Assembly: GCA_027068075.1 (NCBI GenBank)
Contig: JAMOUJ010000006.1
Coordinates: 218,706 to 282,705 of the forward strand
Reading direction: 5' to 3'
DNA: 64,000 nucleotides
Origin: Candidatus Aminicenantes bacterium
GTDB taxonomy: Bacteria > Acidobacteriota > Aminicenantia > S016-38
Shown: positions 11,608 through 40,217 of the stretch, piece by piece
Numbering within the stretch: position 1 is the stretch's first letter
Layout of the letters: each line of letters starts with the position of its first letter
Program-made: the position numbers and the translations under genes
Notes under the pieces: model-generated
The model's database searches: none
What the model saw: only the letters and a program-made list of their open reading frames with translations
What the model was told of the DNA's origin: nothing

Positions 11608-11685
11608 TGGCGGGGCCGACGGGATTTGAACCCGCGACCTCTGGCGTGACAGGCCAGCGCTCTAACCGGGTTGAGCTACGACCCC
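11608..11685 (-). tRNA. tRNA-Asp (anticodon GTC)
   Basis: Reverse complement folds as a cloverleaf: acceptor GGGGTCG/CGGCCCC, anticodon loop CTGTCAC, T-loop TTCAAAT, 3' CCA encoded. Confidence 0.85.
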
Positions 11686-11692
11686 GCTACAC

Positions 11693-11764
11693 TGGGCGGT
11701 AGAGGACTTGAACCTCTGGCCCCCGGCTTGTAAGGCCAGTGCTCTACCACTGAGCTAACCGCCC
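11693..11764 (-). tRNA. tRNA-Val (anticodon TAC)
   Basis: Reverse complement GGGCGGTTAGCTCAGTGGTAGAGCACTGGCCTTACAAGCCGG...ACCGCCCA. Anticodon loop CTTACAA, T-loop TTCAAGT, no encoded CCA. Confidence 0.85.
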
Positions 11765-11775
11765 AATGGCCTATT

Positions 11776-12336
11776 TTATAAGAAGCCACCGGGTTTGTCA
11801 ACTTCTCCAGAAAAATTAGGGAAGGTTATCCTCACCCTGTTGCCGTCCAGGACTTCTATTTCCAGGGGAGTGTTGAAGAGTTTTCCCACCCCCTTCAGGG
11901 CTCCCAGGAAAATTCCCATAAGGCCCCGATGGGATTTGTAGGTCATGATAAGGGTGTTGGGGCCTTCCCATTGATAGGAGAACCGGGGAGGCCGGGCCTC
12001 TGGAATGTTGGTGGTTACCCTGCGGTGGATTTCGTCCATTTTCAGCAGGAATTCTCTGGCGTTGGTAATTCCCCGGTAATAGGGCTTGTAGACCTTTCTG
12101 GTGTAAACCGTCACCCAGTATTCCCCGAAGGCATCTGCCAATTCCTCCGGGGTCATGTTCAGGTGTCTGGACATGGAGTTCAGGATGGCCAGGACGGTTT
12201 CGTCGGGGATGTTTTCCCCCACGGAGAAGGTTTTTCCCACGGGAAGCCCTGCTCCGTCAAGTATGTCATACCATTTCTCCTGGCCGAAGTGTTCCACCAC
12301 CAGATCCCTTATGGCGTCAACTATGCAACCCTTCAT
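11776..12336 (-). CDS. Stand-alone H-NOX (heme NO/O2-binding, HNOB) domain protein, copy 1
   Basis: 186 aa. Aligns along its length with Tt H-NOX: 'MKGCIV..', proximal His in 'FLLKMDEIHRRV', 'PPRF', and heme-propionate motif Y-x-S-x-R ('YKSHRGL'). Confidence 0.85.
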   Translation of the reverse strand: MKGCIVDAIRDLVVEHFGQEKWYDILDGAGLPVGKTFSVGENIPDETVLAILNSMSRHLNMTPEELADAFGEYWVTVYTRKVYKPYYRGITNAREFLLKMDEIHRRVTTNIPEARPPRFSYQWEGPNTLIMTYKSHRGLMGIFLGALKGVGKLFNTPLEIEVLDGNRVRITFPNFSGEVDKPGGFL

Positions 12337-12346
12337 GGCGAGTTTC

Positions 12347-12739
12347 TTAAATTTCCCCCAGGTCCTTCAGGGCCTCCAGGAAGGAGACCTCGTATTTCTT
12401 CATGATGACTCTGGCCAGGCCCAGGTTTCCCTGCCTGCTTATGGCCACTCCGTGATAATGTCTGCTCCCGAGGTGGCGGAGAAGAAGGTAGATTTTATCG
12501 GTGGTTATTAGAATGTCCTCGGTTTCTCCCACCACCTCCGGTCCTCCCAGAAGTTCCAGGGCCTTGTTGTTTTCCTTCAGAACCTCGGCGTATGTGGCGG
12601 AGCCCACGGTCACATCAAACTGGGGGTTGGTGGAAAAGGAGGCCAGGGCCAGTCCGGAATCAATGCTGGCTATGGCGGTCCCCACCAGTTCAGGTATTTC
12701 CTCAGCGCATTTTTTCAATATCTCCTGAAGATTTGGCAT
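12347..12739 (-). CDS. Roadblock/LC7 (MglB-like) domain protein
   Basis: 130 aa. Near-identical to the C-terminal domain of the response regulator at 13397..14524 ('VGETEDILITTDK.Y.L.R.LG..HY.GVA..R.GNLGLARVIMKKYE..FLEALK.LGEI'). RBS GGAGGT lies 8 nt upstream. Confidence 0.75.
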   Translation of the reverse strand: MPNLQEILKKCAEEIPELVGTAIASIDSGLALASFSTNPQFDVTVGSATYAEVLKENNKALELLGGPEVVGETEDILITTDKIYLLLRHLGSRHYHGVAISRQGNLGLARVIMKKYEVSFLEALKDLGEI

Positions 12740-12771
12740 CTTAACTTACCTCCACTTAAAGAATCATATTT

Positions 12772-12799
12772 ATTGTAACACCTTTTTTGATTTTGTAAA
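12772..12799 (-). promoter_or_regulatory. Putative sigma-70 promoter (TTTACA-16-TGtTACAAT) for the roadblock/H-NOX-1 operon
   Basis: Minus-strand sequence TTTACAAAATCAAAAAAGGTGTTACAAT sits about 30 nt upstream of the ATG at 12739, in an AT-rich 120-bp intergenic region. Confidence 0.4.
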
Positions 12800-12859
12800 A
12801 ATTTTAAAAACTTACTTAAAATTCTGGCCTCACCTCCGCCGTGGTTTTTCCGGGTTTAA

Positions 12860-13384
12860 CTATTCGGGAAACACTATCCTGACTTCGTTTTCAGATATCT
12901 GCTCCACCTTGAGTGGGGTGCGGAAGAACTTTCCCACCCCTTTCACCAGGCCCGTGAAGATGCCCACAAGCCCCCGGGGGGATTTGTATTTCATTATGAG
13001 GGTGTTGGGGCCTTCCCATCGGTATTCAAACCTGGGGGGATGGGCGTTGGGGATGTTCTGGGTTGCCTTGCGGTGAATTTCGTCCATCTTGGACAGGAGT
13101 TCCTTGGCGCTGGTTATGCCCCGGTAATAGGGCTTGTAAACCTTGGGCATGTAAACCGTCACCCAGTATTCCCCGAAGGCATCAGCCACCTCTTCCGGGG
13201 AAAGGTTCAGGGTCTTTGATATGGATTCCACCACCGCCAGGATGGTTTCGTCCGGAACATCCTCCCTCAGGGAGAAGGTGGTAGTCCGATCAAGGCCTGC
13301 GTTTTCCAGGATGTCCTTCCACTTGTCCATCCCGAAGTTTTCAATGACCAGGTCCTTGATGGCGTCTATGATAACGCCCTTCAT
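12860..13384 (-). CDS. Stand-alone H-NOX domain protein, copy 2 (paralog of 11776..12336)
   Basis: 174 aa. Same motifs as copy 1: 'MKGVIIDAIKDL', 'MDEIHRKAT', 'PPRF', 'YKSPRGL'. Starts 12 nt downstream of the response-regulator gene stop. Confidence 0.85.
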   Translation of the reverse strand: MKGVIIDAIKDLVIENFGMDKWKDILENAGLDRTTTFSLREDVPDETILAVVESISKTLNLSPEEVADAFGEYWVTVYMPKVYKPYYRGITSAKELLSKMDEIHRKATQNIPNAHPPRFEYRWEGPNTLIMKYKSPRGLVGIFTGLVKGVGKFFRTPLKVEQISENEVRIVFPE

Positions 13385-13396
13385 ATCATGCCTCCA

Positions 13397-14524
13397 TTAG
13401 ATTTCGCCCAGTTCTTTCAGGGCTTCCAGGAAGGCTATCTCGTATTTTTTCATTATCACCCTGGCCAACCCCAGATTACCCTTTCTGGTCATGGCCACTC
13501 CCTGGTAATGTTTCTCACCCAACTGTCTCACCAGGATGTAGACCTTGTCGGTGGTTATGAGGATGTCTTCGGTTTCTCCCACCACCTCCGCTCCTCCCAG
13601 GAGTTCCAGGGCCCTGTTGTTCTGTTTTAGCACCTCCGCGTAAACAGCGGAAGCCACGGTGTCGTCAAAACTGGGATCCGAGGAATATGTGGCTATGGGC
13701 ATGCCGGATTCAATGTTCACTATGGAAGTTGCCAGAATTTCTGGAATTTCTCCCGCCGACTTTTCCAGGATTTTTTGGATTTCAGACATTTTATCACCTC
13801 CTTTGATAATCACCTCAAATTCTTCCTTCTCCCTGGTCCTCTCCTCGTCCTTGTACCTGGCGGCCTCCAGGACCAGGTGCATGATGTTCTCCCCTATCAA
13901 GCCATCCCTTTCTTCCCTGTAGGGTTCCGATGAGAAGGTTCCCCCCTCCCACTTCATCATCTCCATGAAGGCATCCATTCCCAGGAGGCCTCCTTCGGTT
14001 TTTGCCCAGACCACCTTTCCGTTCTTTATGCCCATTTCACCCTTGAATCCGATGGAATTTTCCACATTGAGCACCACATCCTTGTTGTAGAAGGACAGGA
14101 ACTGAAGGATGTCCACCAGTTCAAGGTCGCTCAGGGAGACCTCAAAGCCCTTGGTCTGGAAAATTTTTCCGATAATCCTCAGCAGTTGGTTCAGGTCCAC
14201 GGGCTTTTCAATGTAGAGGAGGGCTCCGGATTTCTTGGCCTTTTCCTTGAAGGCCGGGGATCCGTAGGCGGTAATGAGGATGACCCTGGTCTGGGGCATG
14301 TTTTCCCTCACCCAGAGGAGAAGTTCAAACCCGTCCTTGCCTGGCAGTTTTATGTCGGAGATAACCAGGTCCACGGGATGTTTTTTCAAAAACTCCACCG
14401 CCTCCTCGTAACTGTAGGCCCCGTAGCATTCCAGTTTTTTGCTCAAAAATTCCATCATGGAAAGGGTTATGTTGACTTCGTCGTCCACGATGAGAACTTT
14501 GGGTTTCTTCTTACGCTTAGCCAT
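13397..14524 (-). CDS. Response regulator: receiver domain + DUF4388-like domain + C-terminal Roadblock/LC7 domain
   Basis: Receiver 'KVLIVDDEVN...DLVISDIKLPGKDGFELL...ILITAYG'. Middle 'LSDLELVDILQFL...GKVVWA' resembles DUF4388. The last ~125 aa are paralogous to the 130-aa Roadblock protein. Start placed at 'MAKRKKKPKVLIVDDE' (14524); the longer ORF to 14680 is not receiver-like. Confidence 0.75.
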   Translation of the reverse strand: MAKRKKKPKVLIVDDEVNITLSMMEFLSKKLECYGAYSYEEAVEFLKKHPVDLVISDIKLPGKDGFELLLWVRENMPQTRVILITAYGSPAFKEKAKKSGALLYIEKPVDLNQLLRIIGKIFQTKGFEVSLSDLELVDILQFLSFYNKDVVLNVENSIGFKGEMGIKNGKVVWAKTEGGLLGMDAFMEMMKWEGGTFSSEPYREERDGLIGENIMHLVLEAARYKDEERTREKEEFEVIIKGGDKMSEIQKILEKSAGEIPEILATSIVNIESGMPIATYSSDPSFDDTVASAVYAEVLKQNNRALELLGGAEVVGETEDILITTDKVYILVRQLGEKHYQGVAMTRKGNLGLARVIMKKYEIAFLEALKELGEI

Positions 14525-14536
14525 CGCCCTTAAACA

Positions 14537-14552
14537 AGCAAAAAACTTGCCA
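14537..14552 (-). promoter_or_regulatory. Candidate sigma-54 (-24/-12) promoter TGGCAA-N5-TTGCT upstream of the RR/H-NOX operon
   Basis: The minus strand reads TGGCAAGTTTTTTGCTT. It matches the TGGCAC-N5-TTGCW consensus with one mismatch and correct GG-N10-GC spacing. A divergent NtrC-type activator is encoded 1 kb away. The predicted TSS is only about 2 nt before the ATG (leaderless-like), which is the main caveat. Confidence 0.35.
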
Positions 14553-14607
14553 GAATTCCTCCGCTCCAGTCCTTGCCTTTTCGTCGCCGTGTGGTAAAAT
14601 TTTTTCC

Positions 14608-15513
14608 ATGGAAGATTTGCTACCCACAAACTTGGTGGGGGTTTTTTGTCAGAGGGAGGATGGGATAACCCTTTATCCAAAGGACTTTGAAAGGCTTTTT
14701 TCTCCAGAGAAGGAGAGGATCCTTCAGGAAATAGAAACTGGAAAGAAAAGTGTCACCTTCGGAAGTTGGGACTGGGAAGTCTTTGATGTTACCGAAGGGG
14801 TGGGCGACGGAGAGATTTACAAACTGCTCATCTTCGTTCCCCTCAACAGGGAAATGACCCACATATATTCCATGATAATCCACGAACTGAAAAACCCCAT
14901 AGCGGCCATAAGAGCCATGGTCCAGGTGATGGAAACCAGCATTCTGGAAGGCACCCTGGCCAGGGACAAATTGCTCCAGTATTCCTCGCTGATCCTGGAG
15001 GAGATAGACCGAATGAACCGGTTGCTTTCCTCCATAATAAAACTGGCGAAGCCCCGCACCAAGTTCCAATATCGTTTTGACCTGGTGGAGGAAGTTAAAA
15101 AGGCCATGGGAACCTGGAGCGAGGAGTTTCGGGCTCGGGGGATAAAAATGGTTCTGGTTTCCAATGTGGAGAAGGTGTTTTTCCTGGGCAATCCCGACGA
15201 AATACACCAGATAATCAACAACCTATTGAGGAATTCCAGGGAAGCCTTAGAAGGGGTAAAGAAGCCCAGGGTGGAGGTGAATTTGTGGGATAAGGGGAGC
15301 GAAATCCTCCTCACCGTGAAAGACAACGGCCGTGGAATTCCTCCGGATGTTCTTCAGAAAATAAAAACTTCCTTCTACTCCTCCAAGCCCCACGGACTGG
15401 GGTTGGGTCTCTTCGTGGTGAAGAGCATCGTGAGAAGGTATCGGGGAACCATAAGCATCAATTCGGAGCCCGGAAAGGGCTGCGAGGTGGTGGTTCGTTT
15501 TCCCAAGCGATGA
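14608..15513 (+). CDS. Soluble sensor histidine kinase (short N-terminal input region, HisKA, HATPase_c)
   Basis: H-box 'IHELKNPIAAIRAMV' and G-boxes 'DNGRGIP...GLGLGL'. No TM segments. Its stop overlaps the downstream RR start (ATGA). Confidence 0.8.
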   Translation: MEDLLPTNLVGVFCQREDGITLYPKDFERLFSPEKERILQEIETGKKSVTFGSWDWEVFDVTEGVGDGEIYKLLIFVPLNREMTHIYSMIIHELKNPIAAIRAMVQVMETSILEGTLARDKLLQYSSLILEEIDRMNRLLSSIIKLAKPRTKFQYRFDLVEEVKKAMGTWSEEFRARGIKMVLVSNVEKVFFLGNPDEIHQIINNLLRNSREALEGVKKPRVEVNLWDKGSEILLTVKDNGRGIPPDVLQKIKTSFYSSKPHGLGLGLFVVKSIVRRYRGTISINSEPGKGCEVVVRFPKR

Positions 15514-16751
15514 GCGACATTCTGATAATAGAAGACGATGGGGCCTTTGCCCTGGCCCTTCAGGATTATTTATCCTCCCGGGGATTTACGGTGGATGTGG
15601 TTTTTTCAGCCCGCAGGGCCCTGGATGTGGTCAGGTGGAATCCCCCCAGGGTGGTAATTCTTGACCTCTTCCTTCCCGACGCCAACGGCCTGGACCTCAT
15701 TCCTGAACTTTCCACGGCAGGGGTTTTCATCGTGGTGATCACCGGTTCAGAGGAGGTAAGGCTGGCGGTGGAGGCCATGAGGAGGGGGGCCCACGATTTT
15801 TTGGTCAAGCCCGTGGACCTGGAGGCCCTGGCCCTGAAACTGGAAAGAAATTTTCCAGCGGAATCGGAGCACGGCCTCGTGGGGAATTCCCCGGCCATGA
15901 GGAGGGTGGTGGAGGAAGCGAAACTGGCTTCACGCGGCAGGGCCAGCGTCCTCATCCTGGGGGAGACCGGGGTGGGCAAGGAGGAGGTGGCCCGGGCCAT
16001 TTACAGGTTGTCGGGTAGAAGGGGTAAGTTCGTGGCAGTGAACGCTTCGGCGGTTCCCGAGGCCCTCTTTGAATCCGAACTCTTCGGTCATAAGAGAGGG
16101 GCCTTCACCGGGGCCTCCTATTCCAAGAAGGGCCTTCTGGAGGAAGCCCACGGCGGGGTTTTCTTTCTGGACGAAATCTCCGAAATGCCACCTCACCTTC
16201 AGGCGAAACTCCTGAGGGTTCTGGAGACCAGGAGGCTCCGCAGGCTGGGTGAGACCCGGGATGTAGAGGTGGACTTTAAGTTTATAGCGTCTTCCAACCT
16301 GAGCCTGGACGGGGTCCGTCAGCGGTTGAGGGAGGATTTATTCTACAGGATATCCACCTTCATCATAGAAATACCTCCCCTGAGGGAAAGGAAAGAAGAC
16401 ATACTTCCCCTGGCCAAGCATTTTCTGAGGGAGTTCGGAAGGGACAAGGGGATATTCGGGTTGAGCCCCGCCGCCGAGGAACTTCTACAAAACTATCCGT
16501 GGCCCGGAAATGTTCGGGAACTGAGAAACGAAATAGAAAGGGCATGTATAGTTTGTGGCGGCAAACAGTTGGAGCCATCGCATTTCAGTCCCAACATAAG
16601 GTCCCGGACCAGAATTTTGACCCTGGAGGAGATGGAGAGGGAATACATAAAAAAGGTGGTTCAACTCTGCGGTGGGAACAAGAGCAAGGCCGCCAGGCTC
16701 CTGGGAATTTCCCGGCCCACCCTCCGCAGGAAACTTTCCGGCAAGCCTTGA
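15510..16751 (+). CDS. Sigma-54-dependent transcriptional activator, NtrC family (REC-AAA+-HTH)
   Basis: Receiver 'ILIIEDDG...VVILDLFLPD'. AAA+ 'VLILGETGVGKEEVARAIY', GAFTGA motif 'GAFTGA', 'ESELFGH'. C-terminal Fis-type HTH 'AARLLGISRPTLRRKL'. Confidence 0.9.
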   Translation: MSDILIIEDDGAFALALQDYLSSRGFTVDVVFSARRALDVVRWNPPRVVILDLFLPDANGLDLIPELSTAGVFIVVITGSEEVRLAVEAMRRGAHDFLVKPVDLEALALKLERNFPAESEHGLVGNSPAMRRVVEEAKLASRGRASVLILGETGVGKEEVARAIYRLSGRRGKFVAVNASAVPEALFESELFGHKRGAFTGASYSKKGLLEEAHGGVFFLDEISEMPPHLQAKLLRVLETRRLRRLGETRDVEVDFKFIASSNLSLDGVRQRLREDLFYRISTFIIEIPPLRERKEDILPLAKHFLREFGRDKGIFGLSPAAEELLQNYPWPGNVRELRNEIERACIVCGGKQLEPSHFSPNIRSRTRILTLEEMEREYIKKVVQLCGGNKSKAARLLGISRPTLRRKLSGKP

Positions 16752-39341: not shown

Positions 39342-40217
39342 CTACTGATTTTCCAGGAGGGTCAGAATGGCCGGGTCGTCCCTCCAGCCCTTTCTGACCT
39401 TTACCAGGAGGTCAAGGTATATCTTCTTGCCGAAGATGAATTCAAGTTCTTCCCTGGCCTTTTTCCCCACTATTTTCAGGTTTTCTCCCCCCTTTCCTAT
39501 AACGATTTTTTTGTGGTTTTCCTTCTCCACGAAGATGGTGGCTGAAATGTAGAGAAGGTCTCCGCGATCCTCCATCTCTTCCACCAGAACTCCCACGGAG
39601 TAGGGGAGTTCTGCCCGGAGGCGGTGTAAAAGTTTCTCCCTTATTATCTCAGAGACCAGGAATTTATCCGATATGTTGGTAACCGTTTGGGGAGGAAAGA
39701 GGGGCTCCCCTTCGGGCAGGTGCTTGTAGATCAGGTCTTCCAGCAGGTCCAAATTGGTGCCCTTGTAGGCGGATACAGGCACTATCTCCTCAAAATCCAG
39801 AAGGTCCTTGTAGAGGTCTATGACCGGAAGGATCTTCCCCTTGGACACCAGATCTATTTTGTTTATAACCAGGAATTTCTTCGGTTTTACCTCCTTCAGC
39901 ATGTTCACCACGAACTGGTCACCCTTGCCGAAGGGCTGGGTTATGTCAACCACTAAAAGGATGAGGTCCGTATCCCTCAGGGATTCGTAAACCCTCTCCA
40001 TCATCAGTTCGTTGAGTTTGTGAAGTGGGCGGTGGATCCCCGGATTATCCATGAATACTATTTGACCCTTCTCCGTGGTTTTTATCCCCAGGATCCTGTG
40101 CCGGGTGGTCTGGGGGGTGGGGGAGACTATGGTTACCTTCCTCCCCAGCATGGCGTTGAGGAGCGTGGACTTACCCACATTGGGTCTTCCTATTATGGAG
40201 ACAAAACCCGCCTTCAT
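39342..40217 (-). CDS. era: GTPase Era
   Basis: 'GFVSIIGRPNVGKSTLLN' G1, 'DTPG', 'NKID' and a C-terminal KH domain. Confidence 0.9.
   Translation of the reverse strand: MKAGFVSIIGRPNVGKSTLLNAMLGRKVTIVSPTPQTTRHRILGIKTTEKGQIVFMDNPGIHRPLHKLNELMMERVYESLRDTDLILLVVDITQPFGKGDQFVVNMLKEVKPKKFLVINKIDLVSKGKILPVIDLYKDLLDFEEIVPVSAYKGTNLDLLEDLIYKHLPEGEPLFPPQTVTNISDKFLVSEIIREKLLHRLRAELPYSVGVLVEEMEDRGDLLYISATIFVEKENHKKIVIGKGGENLKIVGKKAREELEFIFGKKIYLDLLVKVRKGWRDDPAILTLLENQ

Follow-up and report, generated by a model that had tools for sequence, protein, structure and literature searches.

Which gas do the paired H-NOX proteins of a strict anaerobe sense, and through which partners would they pass the signal on? 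The question is raised by a locus in a stretch of 64,000 nucleotides (hereafter the window) from Candidatus Aminicenantes bacterium (GenBank assembly GCA_027068075.1, contig JAMOUJ010000006.1, positions 218,706 to 282,705 of the forward strand), where two H-NOX genes, here called copies A and B, lie among consecutive minus-strand genes. A first reading of this DNA, made from its letters only, had held that both copies lack the Tyr/Trp/Asn triad of the distal haem pocket and had predicted NO-selective sensing. Which ligand an H-NOX protein selects is usually predicted from Tyr140 and from a rule based on the type of organism, and this locus shows the limits of both: its host is a strict anaerobe, yet its H-NOX proteins stand alone, lack Tyr140 and have in their pocket a Trp as well as a Tyr at another position. 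As set out below, both proteins likely exclude O2 from their ferrous haem. Nitric oxide (NO) is the single most likely physiological ligand, held with somewhat less than even confidence, and carbon monoxide (CO) is a serious rival that trails it only narrowly. The wiring of these H-NOX proteins through Roadblock-domain partners is unusual.

The two open reading frames (ORFs) of the sequence-only reading, and the strings it quoted from them (MKGVIIDAI/MKGCIVDAI and YKSPRGLVGIF/YKSHRGLMGIF), are present as written on the minus strand. Copy A (12860-13384, minus strand, 174 aa) and copy B (11776-12336, minus strand, 186 aa) are 67% identical to each other, and both are true H-NOX proteins in which all haem-binding residues are kept. 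They match the Pfam family HNOB (PF07700; E 4e-41 for copy A and 6e-42 for copy B) over model positions 1-163, the two copies scoring 143.7 and 141.1 bits against a cutoff of 25.5. The proximal haem-ligating His104 aligns with His102 of Tt H-NOX and His105 of soluble guanylate cyclase (sGC), and is retained in all 108 unique sequences of the clade described below, as are Pro116 (Pro115 in Tt) and the Y133-x-S135-x-R137 propionate motif. An AlphaFold2 (AF2) model of copy B, with a predicted local distance difference test (pLDDT) score of 89 and a disordered C-terminal tail of 12 aa below 50, places His104 within helix 93-108. When this model was searched with Foldseek, the top 48 matches were all H-NOX or sGC structures, and the Nostoc protein and Tt 1U55 both reached a template modelling score (TM) of 0.84. 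Copy A, 86% identical to the H-NOX of locus L001, is orthologous to the gene that related Aminicenantes loci have in one copy, and copy B has diverged as a paralog, with 60-67% identity to every relative. Second H-NOX copies in loci L002 and L003 have a separate origin and a different gene order. From their sequences, copies A and B are thus predicted to be stand-alone, paralogous haem-b gas sensors.

These proteins belong to a distinct and sizeable clade of stand-alone H-NOX proteins in strict anaerobes, whose nearest studied member is Nostoc H-NOX. A word-indexed search with copy B returned 33 proteins, all stand-alone and 173-186 aa long. With copy A as the HMMER query against 1.84 billion representatives, 1614 matches were found at E <= 1e-3, 440 at <= 1e-10 and 70 at <= 1e-30; the last correspond to about 70 clusters at 50% identity. 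For the survey of loci we kept one genome per species, which gave 80 loci, 23 of them archaeal as judged from their record titles, and residues were counted in the 108 unique sequences. No biochemically characterised member of the clade was found in the literature searched. According to the usual rule, facultative anaerobes have stand-alone, NO-specific H-NOX proteins and obligate anaerobes have Tyr-bearing O2 binders fused to methyl-accepting chemotaxis proteins (MCPs) (PMC8738867). The clade does not fit this rule, which makes the analogy with the Vibrio and Shewanella proteins (19-21% identity) a weak one.

To compare the pockets, the window copies were aligned with MAFFT to the H-NOX sequences of Tt, Nostoc, Shewanella oneidensis, S. 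woodyi and human sGC beta1. The Tt reference is identical to the chains of 1U4H/1U55, that of S. oneidensis to 2KII and that of human sGC beta1 to 5MNW/6JT0; for Nostoc and S. woodyi, the sequences come from HMMER alignments. The alignment agrees with the sequence-only reading that both copies have Ile at the position of Trp9 and Ile142 at the position of Tyr140, and the stretch from the YxSxR motif to the Tyr140 position is ungapped. At position 9, where Tt has Trp9, the window and Nostoc proteins have Ile, and sGC beta1 and Shewanella have Leu. Position 142 (Tyr140 in Tt) is Met144 in Nostoc, Ile145 in sGC beta1 and Cys or Phe in Shewanella. Position 146 is Leu in copy A and Ala in copy B, against Leu144 in Tt, Leu in Nostoc and Shewanella and Ile in sGC beta1, and the pocket of both copies further includes Ile5. 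The third position of the triad, to which the earlier reading had assigned no residue, is Trp74 in both copies (Asn74 in Tt, Trp74 in Nostoc, Phe74 in sGC beta1, Leu in Shewanella). The network of Trp9, Asn74 and Tyr140 known from Tt is therefore gone, as had been claimed, but the pocket is not simply emptied: its third position holds a Trp. Position 78 is Tyr in both copies, where Tt has Phe78, Nostoc Thr78, sGC beta1 Cys78 and Shewanella Leu. In the AF2 model, Trp74 and Tyr78 share one helix (63-82), one turn apart and on the same face.

Across the clade this arrangement is conserved to different degrees. Trp74 is found in 107 of the 108 unique members and Tyr73 in 106, and position 142 is Ile, Phe, Leu or Val in 106 and Tyr in two. 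Position 9 is mostly Leu (80), followed by Ile (16), Val (4), Phe (3) and Met (1), with single Arg and Thr exceptions. As position 78 alternates between Tyr (82 members) and Phe (25; the remaining member has Thr), these sequences suggest that the Tyr78 hydroxyl is not essential to a function common to the clade. Among the best 150 HMMER matches, which reach down to 28% identity, Trp74 and Tyr or Phe78 persist, and Tyr occurs at position 142 in six. We also considered a swap of Tyr between positions 78 and 142 and found no support for it: Phe78 with Tyr142 and Tyr78 with Tyr142 each occur once, and 24 of the 108 members have no Tyr at either position. In three proteins, P0102 (660 aa), P0148 and P0094 (605 aa), the clade H-NOX is fused to the C-terminus of a larger protein; P0102 and P0148 combine Tt-like Trp9 and Tyr142 with the Trp74 of the clade and may be O2 binders within it.

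The chemistry of such pockets has been studied in several relatives. Tyr140 of Tt/Cs H-NOX is positioned by Trp9 and Asn74 and donates a hydrogen bond to O2 (PMC7356049; PMC12154584). Nostoc H-NOX is described as an NO binder whose apolar pocket does not allow a stable Fe-O2 adduct, and its Trp74 stands perpendicular to the haem at the border of the distal pocket, where it forms a hydrogen bond to the haem and not to the ligand and blocks tunnel 3 (PMC7356049). As the Tyr140 network is absent from the window proteins, and as Nostoc H-NOX shares Trp74 yet holds no stable Fe-O2, exclusion of O2 by the ferrous haem is likely by analogy.

The partners of the two sensors are found in the same gene row. 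Four consecutive minus-strand ORFs of 427, 174, 130 and 186 aa span 11776-14680, the second and fourth being H-NOX copies A and B. The 130-aa protein (12347-12739, minus strand) ends 10 nt before the start of copy B and is 68% identical to residues 298-427, the last 130, of the 427-aa ORF. As the two 130-aa domains resemble each other and the two H-NOX copies do so as well, the locus reflects a tandem duplication of a module that consists of the 130-aa domain and an H-NOX. The 427-aa ORF reaches back to 14680, whereas its homologs are 373-388 aa long and begin at an aligned, invariant ATG. The true start is therefore most likely the ATG at 14524 (MAKRKKKPKVLIVDDE), as judged from the aligned homologs, which gives a regulator of 375 aa (13397-14524, minus strand) whose stop lies 12 nt before copy A. 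Without this correction, the surplus stretch 14524-14680 makes the 427-aa ORF seem to overlap the divergent kinase gene. The regulator matches Response_reg (5.8e-23) and DUF4388 (4.9e-13), the latter being the PATAN/PatA_N domain, and carries the 130-aa domain at its C-terminus.

The 130-aa protein matched no family in Pfam (E <= 0.01) or NCBIfam (0.001), and the name Roadblock is otherwise found only in the source annotations of its homologs. An AF2 model built with 34 homologs (pLDDT 95) nevertheless has the alpha-beta-beta-alpha-beta-beta-beta-alpha order of the Roadblock fold, and Foldseek matched it to MglB, Roadblock and LAMTOR structures at TM 0.72-0.82, with MglB at about 0.8 and E 2e-8. 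On this structural prediction, the 130-aa protein and the C-terminus of the regulator are Roadblock/LC7 domains, the former a stand-alone, MglB-like protein and the latter part of a response regulator with the order REC (receiver), PATAN, Roadblock. A P-loop scan of the window ORFs for an MglA-like GTPase found just Era (39342-40217), 27 kb away. The type IV pilus ATPase PilB1 is a binding partner of PATAN regulators, and PATAN proteins are often encoded near MglA/MglB homologs (bioRxiv 10.1101/2021.06.11.447907).

The spacing between the two genes is conserved. Between the end of the Roadblock domain and the start of the H-NOX there are 10-13 nt in both pairs of the window and in seven further loci (L001-L006 and L084), and 33 nt in L008. 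The loci with this pairing all come from metagenome-assembled genomes (MAGs) of Aminicenantes and Acidobacteria, and the other 70-odd clade loci are without it. Two loci hold the Roadblock family without an H-NOX: in L083 it lies directly upstream of PatA_N and PilZ proteins, and in L081, from a Myxococcota MAG, beside a histidine kinase and a sigma-54 regulator. As these loci contain the family without H-NOX, the Roadblock protein, the PATAN protein and the kinase/sigma-54 pair look like an older module to which the H-NOX was added as an input. Single-copy loci can also contain a second, very divergent Roadblock-like gene downstream of the H-NOX (L001:7915-8280 and L004:2941-3300; 119-121 aa, about 28-30% identity to the main family). 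A look-up of the Roadblock homolog of the cultured isolate Thermotomaculum hydrothermale gave no record.

Upstream of the regulator, which is the first gene of the H-NOX operon, an 84-nt region separates this operon from two genes on the plus strand. The first encodes a soluble histidine kinase (14608-15513, plus strand, 301 aa) with HisKA and HATPase_c domains in Pfam, whose N-terminal residues, about 85 of them, match no known domain. The second (15510-16751, plus strand) encodes an NtrC-type response regulator with a REC domain, a sigma-54 AAA+ activator domain (Sigma54_activat, 4.3e-57) and a Fis helix-turn-helix. The kinase gene adjoins the H-NOX in L001-L003, L005, L008 and L084, and the synteny of the NtrC-type regulator is also conserved. 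Within the 84-nt region lies a sigma-54 type -24/-12 element, TGGCAAGTTTTTTGCT (14537-14552, minus strand), 12 nt upstream of the regulator ATG, which is the sole match in the window to TGGCACN5TTGCW with at most one mismatch. Its TGG...TTGCT is invariant in seven related loci, at the same distance from the regulator ATG, and 6 of the 17 plus-strand matches to the sigma-54 motif in 797 kb of loci lie just upstream of the regulator gene. The motif is not enriched across the window (10 matches against 17 expected), so that the weight rests on the position and conservation of one good match. The NtrC-type regulator is likely to activate this promoter. The same region (14537-14608) includes a block, CATGGAAAAAATTTTACCAC, that is conserved across related loci, and a TAAAAT box that lies 8 nt before the kinase ATG, so that neither of the two divergent genes seems to have a leader. 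A weak candidate for a sigma-70-like promoter may be present at 12772-12799 (minus strand; TTTACA, a 16-nt spacer and TG-TACAAT; 10/12 in a consensus scan), within the 120 nt that precede the second Roadblock/H-NOX pair.

Our favoured account is that of paired NO sensors coupled through Roadblock domains to a sigma-54 circuit. Each ferrous haem would form no stable O2 adduct and would bind NO tightly and CO more weakly. Ligand binding would alter how each H-NOX engages its Roadblock partner, which is presumably a homodimer or a heterodimer that includes the C-terminal domain of the regulator. This change may then modulate the PATAN output, the kinase or both, and the kinase would phosphorylate the NtrC-type activator, which in turn would switch on the sigma-54 promoter of the operon itself. 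Taken as a whole, we hold this account as a tentative one, slightly short of an even chance.

Several observations weigh against it. The sequence-only reading had itself held that a Tyr or another hydrogen-bond donor placed in the distal pocket by alignment or modelling would contradict it, and the modelled Trp74 and Tyr78 go some way in that direction, as they indicate a distal side that is not free of potential donors. In work by Boon, Huang and Marletta (Nat Chem Biol, 2005), Tt Y140L is said to have lost its O2 affinity and F78Y/Y140L to have regained O2 binding. The hosts are strict anaerobes, in which the usual rule expects an O2-binding H-NOX. Across the clade, just two metabolic families recur as neighbours, Prismane/CODH (CO dehydrogenase; 7 immediate neighbours, and 8 loci within two genes) and methylenetetrahydrofolate reductase (MTHFR; 3), and no recurrent NO-metabolising family was present among the 25 most frequent families listed for the 258 neighbours one or two genes away in the 80 loci. 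As to the output, the kinase gene is adjacent but divergent and not part of the operon, unlike in HnoK systems, and the operon partners are instead the Roadblock and REC-PATAN proteins. We infer the contact between H-NOX and Roadblock domain from the adjacency of their genes. Finally, with the sigma-54 element as close as 12 nt to the ATG, the mRNA would have little or no leader, which is unusual.

The neighbourhoods of the clade bear on both the signal and the output. Pfam domains of the 140 immediate neighbours are mainly those of signalling proteins (REC 16, HATPase_c 8, sigma-54 5, CheB 5, MCP 4, CheA/CheW 3). The eight loci linked to cooS belong to Methanoperedenaceae (L011, L016, L019, L020) and Nitrospirota (L038, L055, L058, L080), and thus to two domains of life. 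In these, H-NOX and cooS are mostly co-directional with gaps of 2-290 nt, and in L058 and L080 genes for a CooF-like ferredoxin and an FAD/NAD oxidoreductase are present too. All four CODH neighbours that were tested score above the cutoff of TIGR01702, the equivalog model for cooS, the catalytic subunit of anaerobic CODH. No paper on a clade H-NOX beside cooS was found. In cable bacteria (Candidatus Electrothrix; L036, L066, L070), a conserved gene row encodes a PHP-domain protein, a sigma-54 response regulator, the H-NOX and an MTHFR with a DUF5981 C-terminal domain. In six loci from ANME-1 and Methanosarcinales MAGs (L029, L040, L042, L045, L046, L047), the H-NOX lies inside chemotaxis operons, in the order CheX-like, CheB and H-NOX, followed in L042 and L046 by CheA-CheW. 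In L017 (352-6700), three MCP genes come after the H-NOX, and the first of them encodes a Protoglobin domain, which places two haem sensors in one chemotaxis input cluster.

Could the pocket hold O2 after all? Tyr78, oriented by Trp74 and Tyr73, might stabilise Fe(II)-O2, or the haem might autoxidise, with its ferric form then serving as the signal by which a strict anaerobe responds to oxygen. Both copies and 76% of the clade have Tyr78, which lies where helix 63-82 faces the pocket, and position 78 is a studied pocket residue: it was a target of mutagenesis in Tt (PDB 4FDK, titled 'F78L Tt H-NOX'), and Ile78 of Kordia (Ka) H-NOX borders tunnel 3 (PMC7356049). O2-binding H-NOX proteins are moreover the norm in obligate anaerobes (PMC8738867), the ANME genes within che operons are as expected for oxygen avoidance, and a redox-switch role for Nostoc H-NOX is proposed in the title of one paper. 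However, 24 of the 108 clade members have Phe78 and no Tyr142, Tyr does not swap between positions 78 and 142, and the Trp9 and Asn74 that position Tyr in Tt are missing. Nostoc H-NOX holds no O2 despite the same Trp74 (PMC7356049), and in sGC one Tyr was insufficient, as two introduced donors were needed for an interaction with O2 (PMC12154584). We consider an O2 or redox signal the least probable of the readings weighed here.

Lack of O2 binding does not by itself decide between NO and CO, so that, given the cooS and MTHFR neighbours, CO is a serious rival. In such a reading, the Trp74/Tyr78 clade would sense CO in strict anaerobes, either as an intermediate of the Wood-Ljungdahl pathway or as a substrate, and its signal would go in the window to the Roadblock/PATAN and sigma-54 circuit. 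To our knowledge all H-NOX proteins bind CO, and where O2 and NO are absent nothing would compete with it. The presence of cooS beside H-NOX in eight loci of two domains, and the absence of any recurrent metabolic family other than CODH and MTHFR, argue for CO. Methanoperedens BLZ2 oxidises CO and induces its cooS genes, in a paper that does not mention H-NOX and lists the genes flanking cooS_3, cooS_4 and cooS_5 as 'Hyp.' (PMC13079737). In the BLZ2 assembly the H-NOX (L013) lies at a contig end. One of the 'Hyp.' genes, PADDDONK_03116 just upstream of cooS_4, has 15, 92 and 56 transcripts per million and rises with CO alongside cooS_4 (PMC13079737 Source Data). On the other side, neither the window nor the Aminicenantes and Acidobacteria loci contain cooS, its association with H-NOX is confined to two lineages and may go back to a single transferred cassette, and Methanoperedens also reduces nitrate, so that exposure to NO is plausible there. 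CO is also a weak activator of sGC-type sensors because the His-Fe bond is kept. A CO signal is an unlikely reading but one to be reckoned with, behind NO by a narrow margin and clearly above an O2 or redox signal. A strict form of the earlier prediction would be an NO sensor like those of Vibrio, Shewanella and sGC, to which we add here a fully apolar pocket and an HnoK-like kinase output; it overlaps with our favoured account and differs from it in pocket chemistry and output. Neither copy has an equivalent of Tyr140, positions 9 and 142 are hydrophobic, and a kinase without a sensor domain is encoded next to them, as are two response regulators. Trp74 and Tyr78 in the pocket, the low identity to the Shewanella proteins, a Roadblock domain as the translationally coupled partner and a divergent kinase make this strict form improbable, more so than the CO reading. 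What survives of the claim of NO-selective sensing is likely O2 exclusion, for which the missing Tt network and the Nostoc analogy speak; selectivity for NO is weakened by Tyr78 and Trp74, the CO-related neighbours and the mismatch with the organism-type rule.

The account of paired NO sensors, Roadblock coupling and a sigma-54 circuit thus remains the one that we favour. More interesting than the claim of NO sensing are the spread of the clade in strict anaerobes and archaea, its departure from the rule, the Roadblock/PATAN output and the conserved sigma-54 circuit. No papers on any of these four points were found, in a literature search of incomplete coverage. If the ligand is CO, the clade would be a new class of CO sensor tied to carbon cycling in methane-oxidising archaea, and if the Roadblock protein is the direct output, this would be a new signalling route for haem gas sensors. 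A broader proposal, which we regard as rather doubtful, is that the whole clade consists of CO sensors that control CO dehydrogenase/Wood-Ljungdahl genes and chemotaxis in strict anaerobes (ANME, Methanoperedens and other archaea), with an output in Aminicenantes and Acidobacteria by direct binding to Roadblock/LC7, which is undescribed for any H-NOX. If this were true, the pairing of H-NOX and Roadblock would echo an old association of the V4R/TRAPP fold with the Roadblock/longin fold.

Directly downstream of copy B and before a signal peptidase gene lie tRNA-Asp(GTC) (11608-11685) and tRNA-Val(TAC) (11692-11765), both on the minus strand, and TrkAH and a TonB-dependent receptor are also encoded near the locus. 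The window further encodes a formate-tetrahydrofolate ligase, a protein of the acetate/butyrate-kinase family and radical SAM genes, a content that fits an anaerobic fermenter.

How do these proteins compare with known systems? The best solved relative is the H-NOX of the cyanobacterium Nostoc sp. PCC 7120 (Alr2278, PDB 2O09; E 4e-22, 34% identity, TM 0.84). Like the window copies, it is a stand-alone protein of about 180 aa with Ile9, Trp74, a GEYWVT motif and a hydrophobic residue where Tt has Tyr140, and its haem ligands are the same. Unlike them, it has Thr78 in place of Tyr78, Met144 in place of Ile142 and one extra residue after YxSxR. We know of no Roadblock partner of Nostoc H-NOX. The Tt/Cs protein (the haem domain of Tar4H, 1U55) shares the fold (TM 0.84), the spacing from YxSxR to position 140, Ile5, Pro115 and a thermophilic anaerobe as host. 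It is, however, 27% identical, and the window proteins have Ile, Trp and Ile in place of its Trp9, Asn74 and Tyr140, have Tyr in place of its Phe78 and lack its MCP fusion. Neither window copy thus has the features of an O2 binder of the Tt/Cb type, namely Tyr140, Trp9 with Asn74 and an MCP fusion.

The window copies share with NO-selective proteins of the sGC/Vibrio/Shewanella type the absence of Tyr140, whereas the operon shared with a kinase or a cyclic di-GMP enzyme that marks this type is not found. Like the Shewanella and Vibrio H-NOX/HnoK systems, they are stand-alone, lie near a sensor-less kinase, have more than one response regulator nearby and lack the distal Tyr140. Unlike those systems, to which identity is 19-21% and in which hnoX and hnoK share an operon, the window locus has a co-translated Roadblock protein and a divergent kinase, and its outputs are PATAN and sigma-54 instead of cyclic di-GMP enzymes. 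CooA and RcoM, haem CO regulators encoded beside cooS genes, are a parallel for the CO reading only, as their folds (CRP/FNR and PAS-LytTR) and ligand displacement mechanisms are unrelated and they have no homology to H-NOX. On the side of the partners, the 130-aa protein and the C-terminus of the regulator share with MglB and the Roadblock/LC7 family the predicted fold (TM 0.8 to MglB). They differ from these in falling below the Pfam thresholds and in having a haem sensor, not a GTPase, as their partner.

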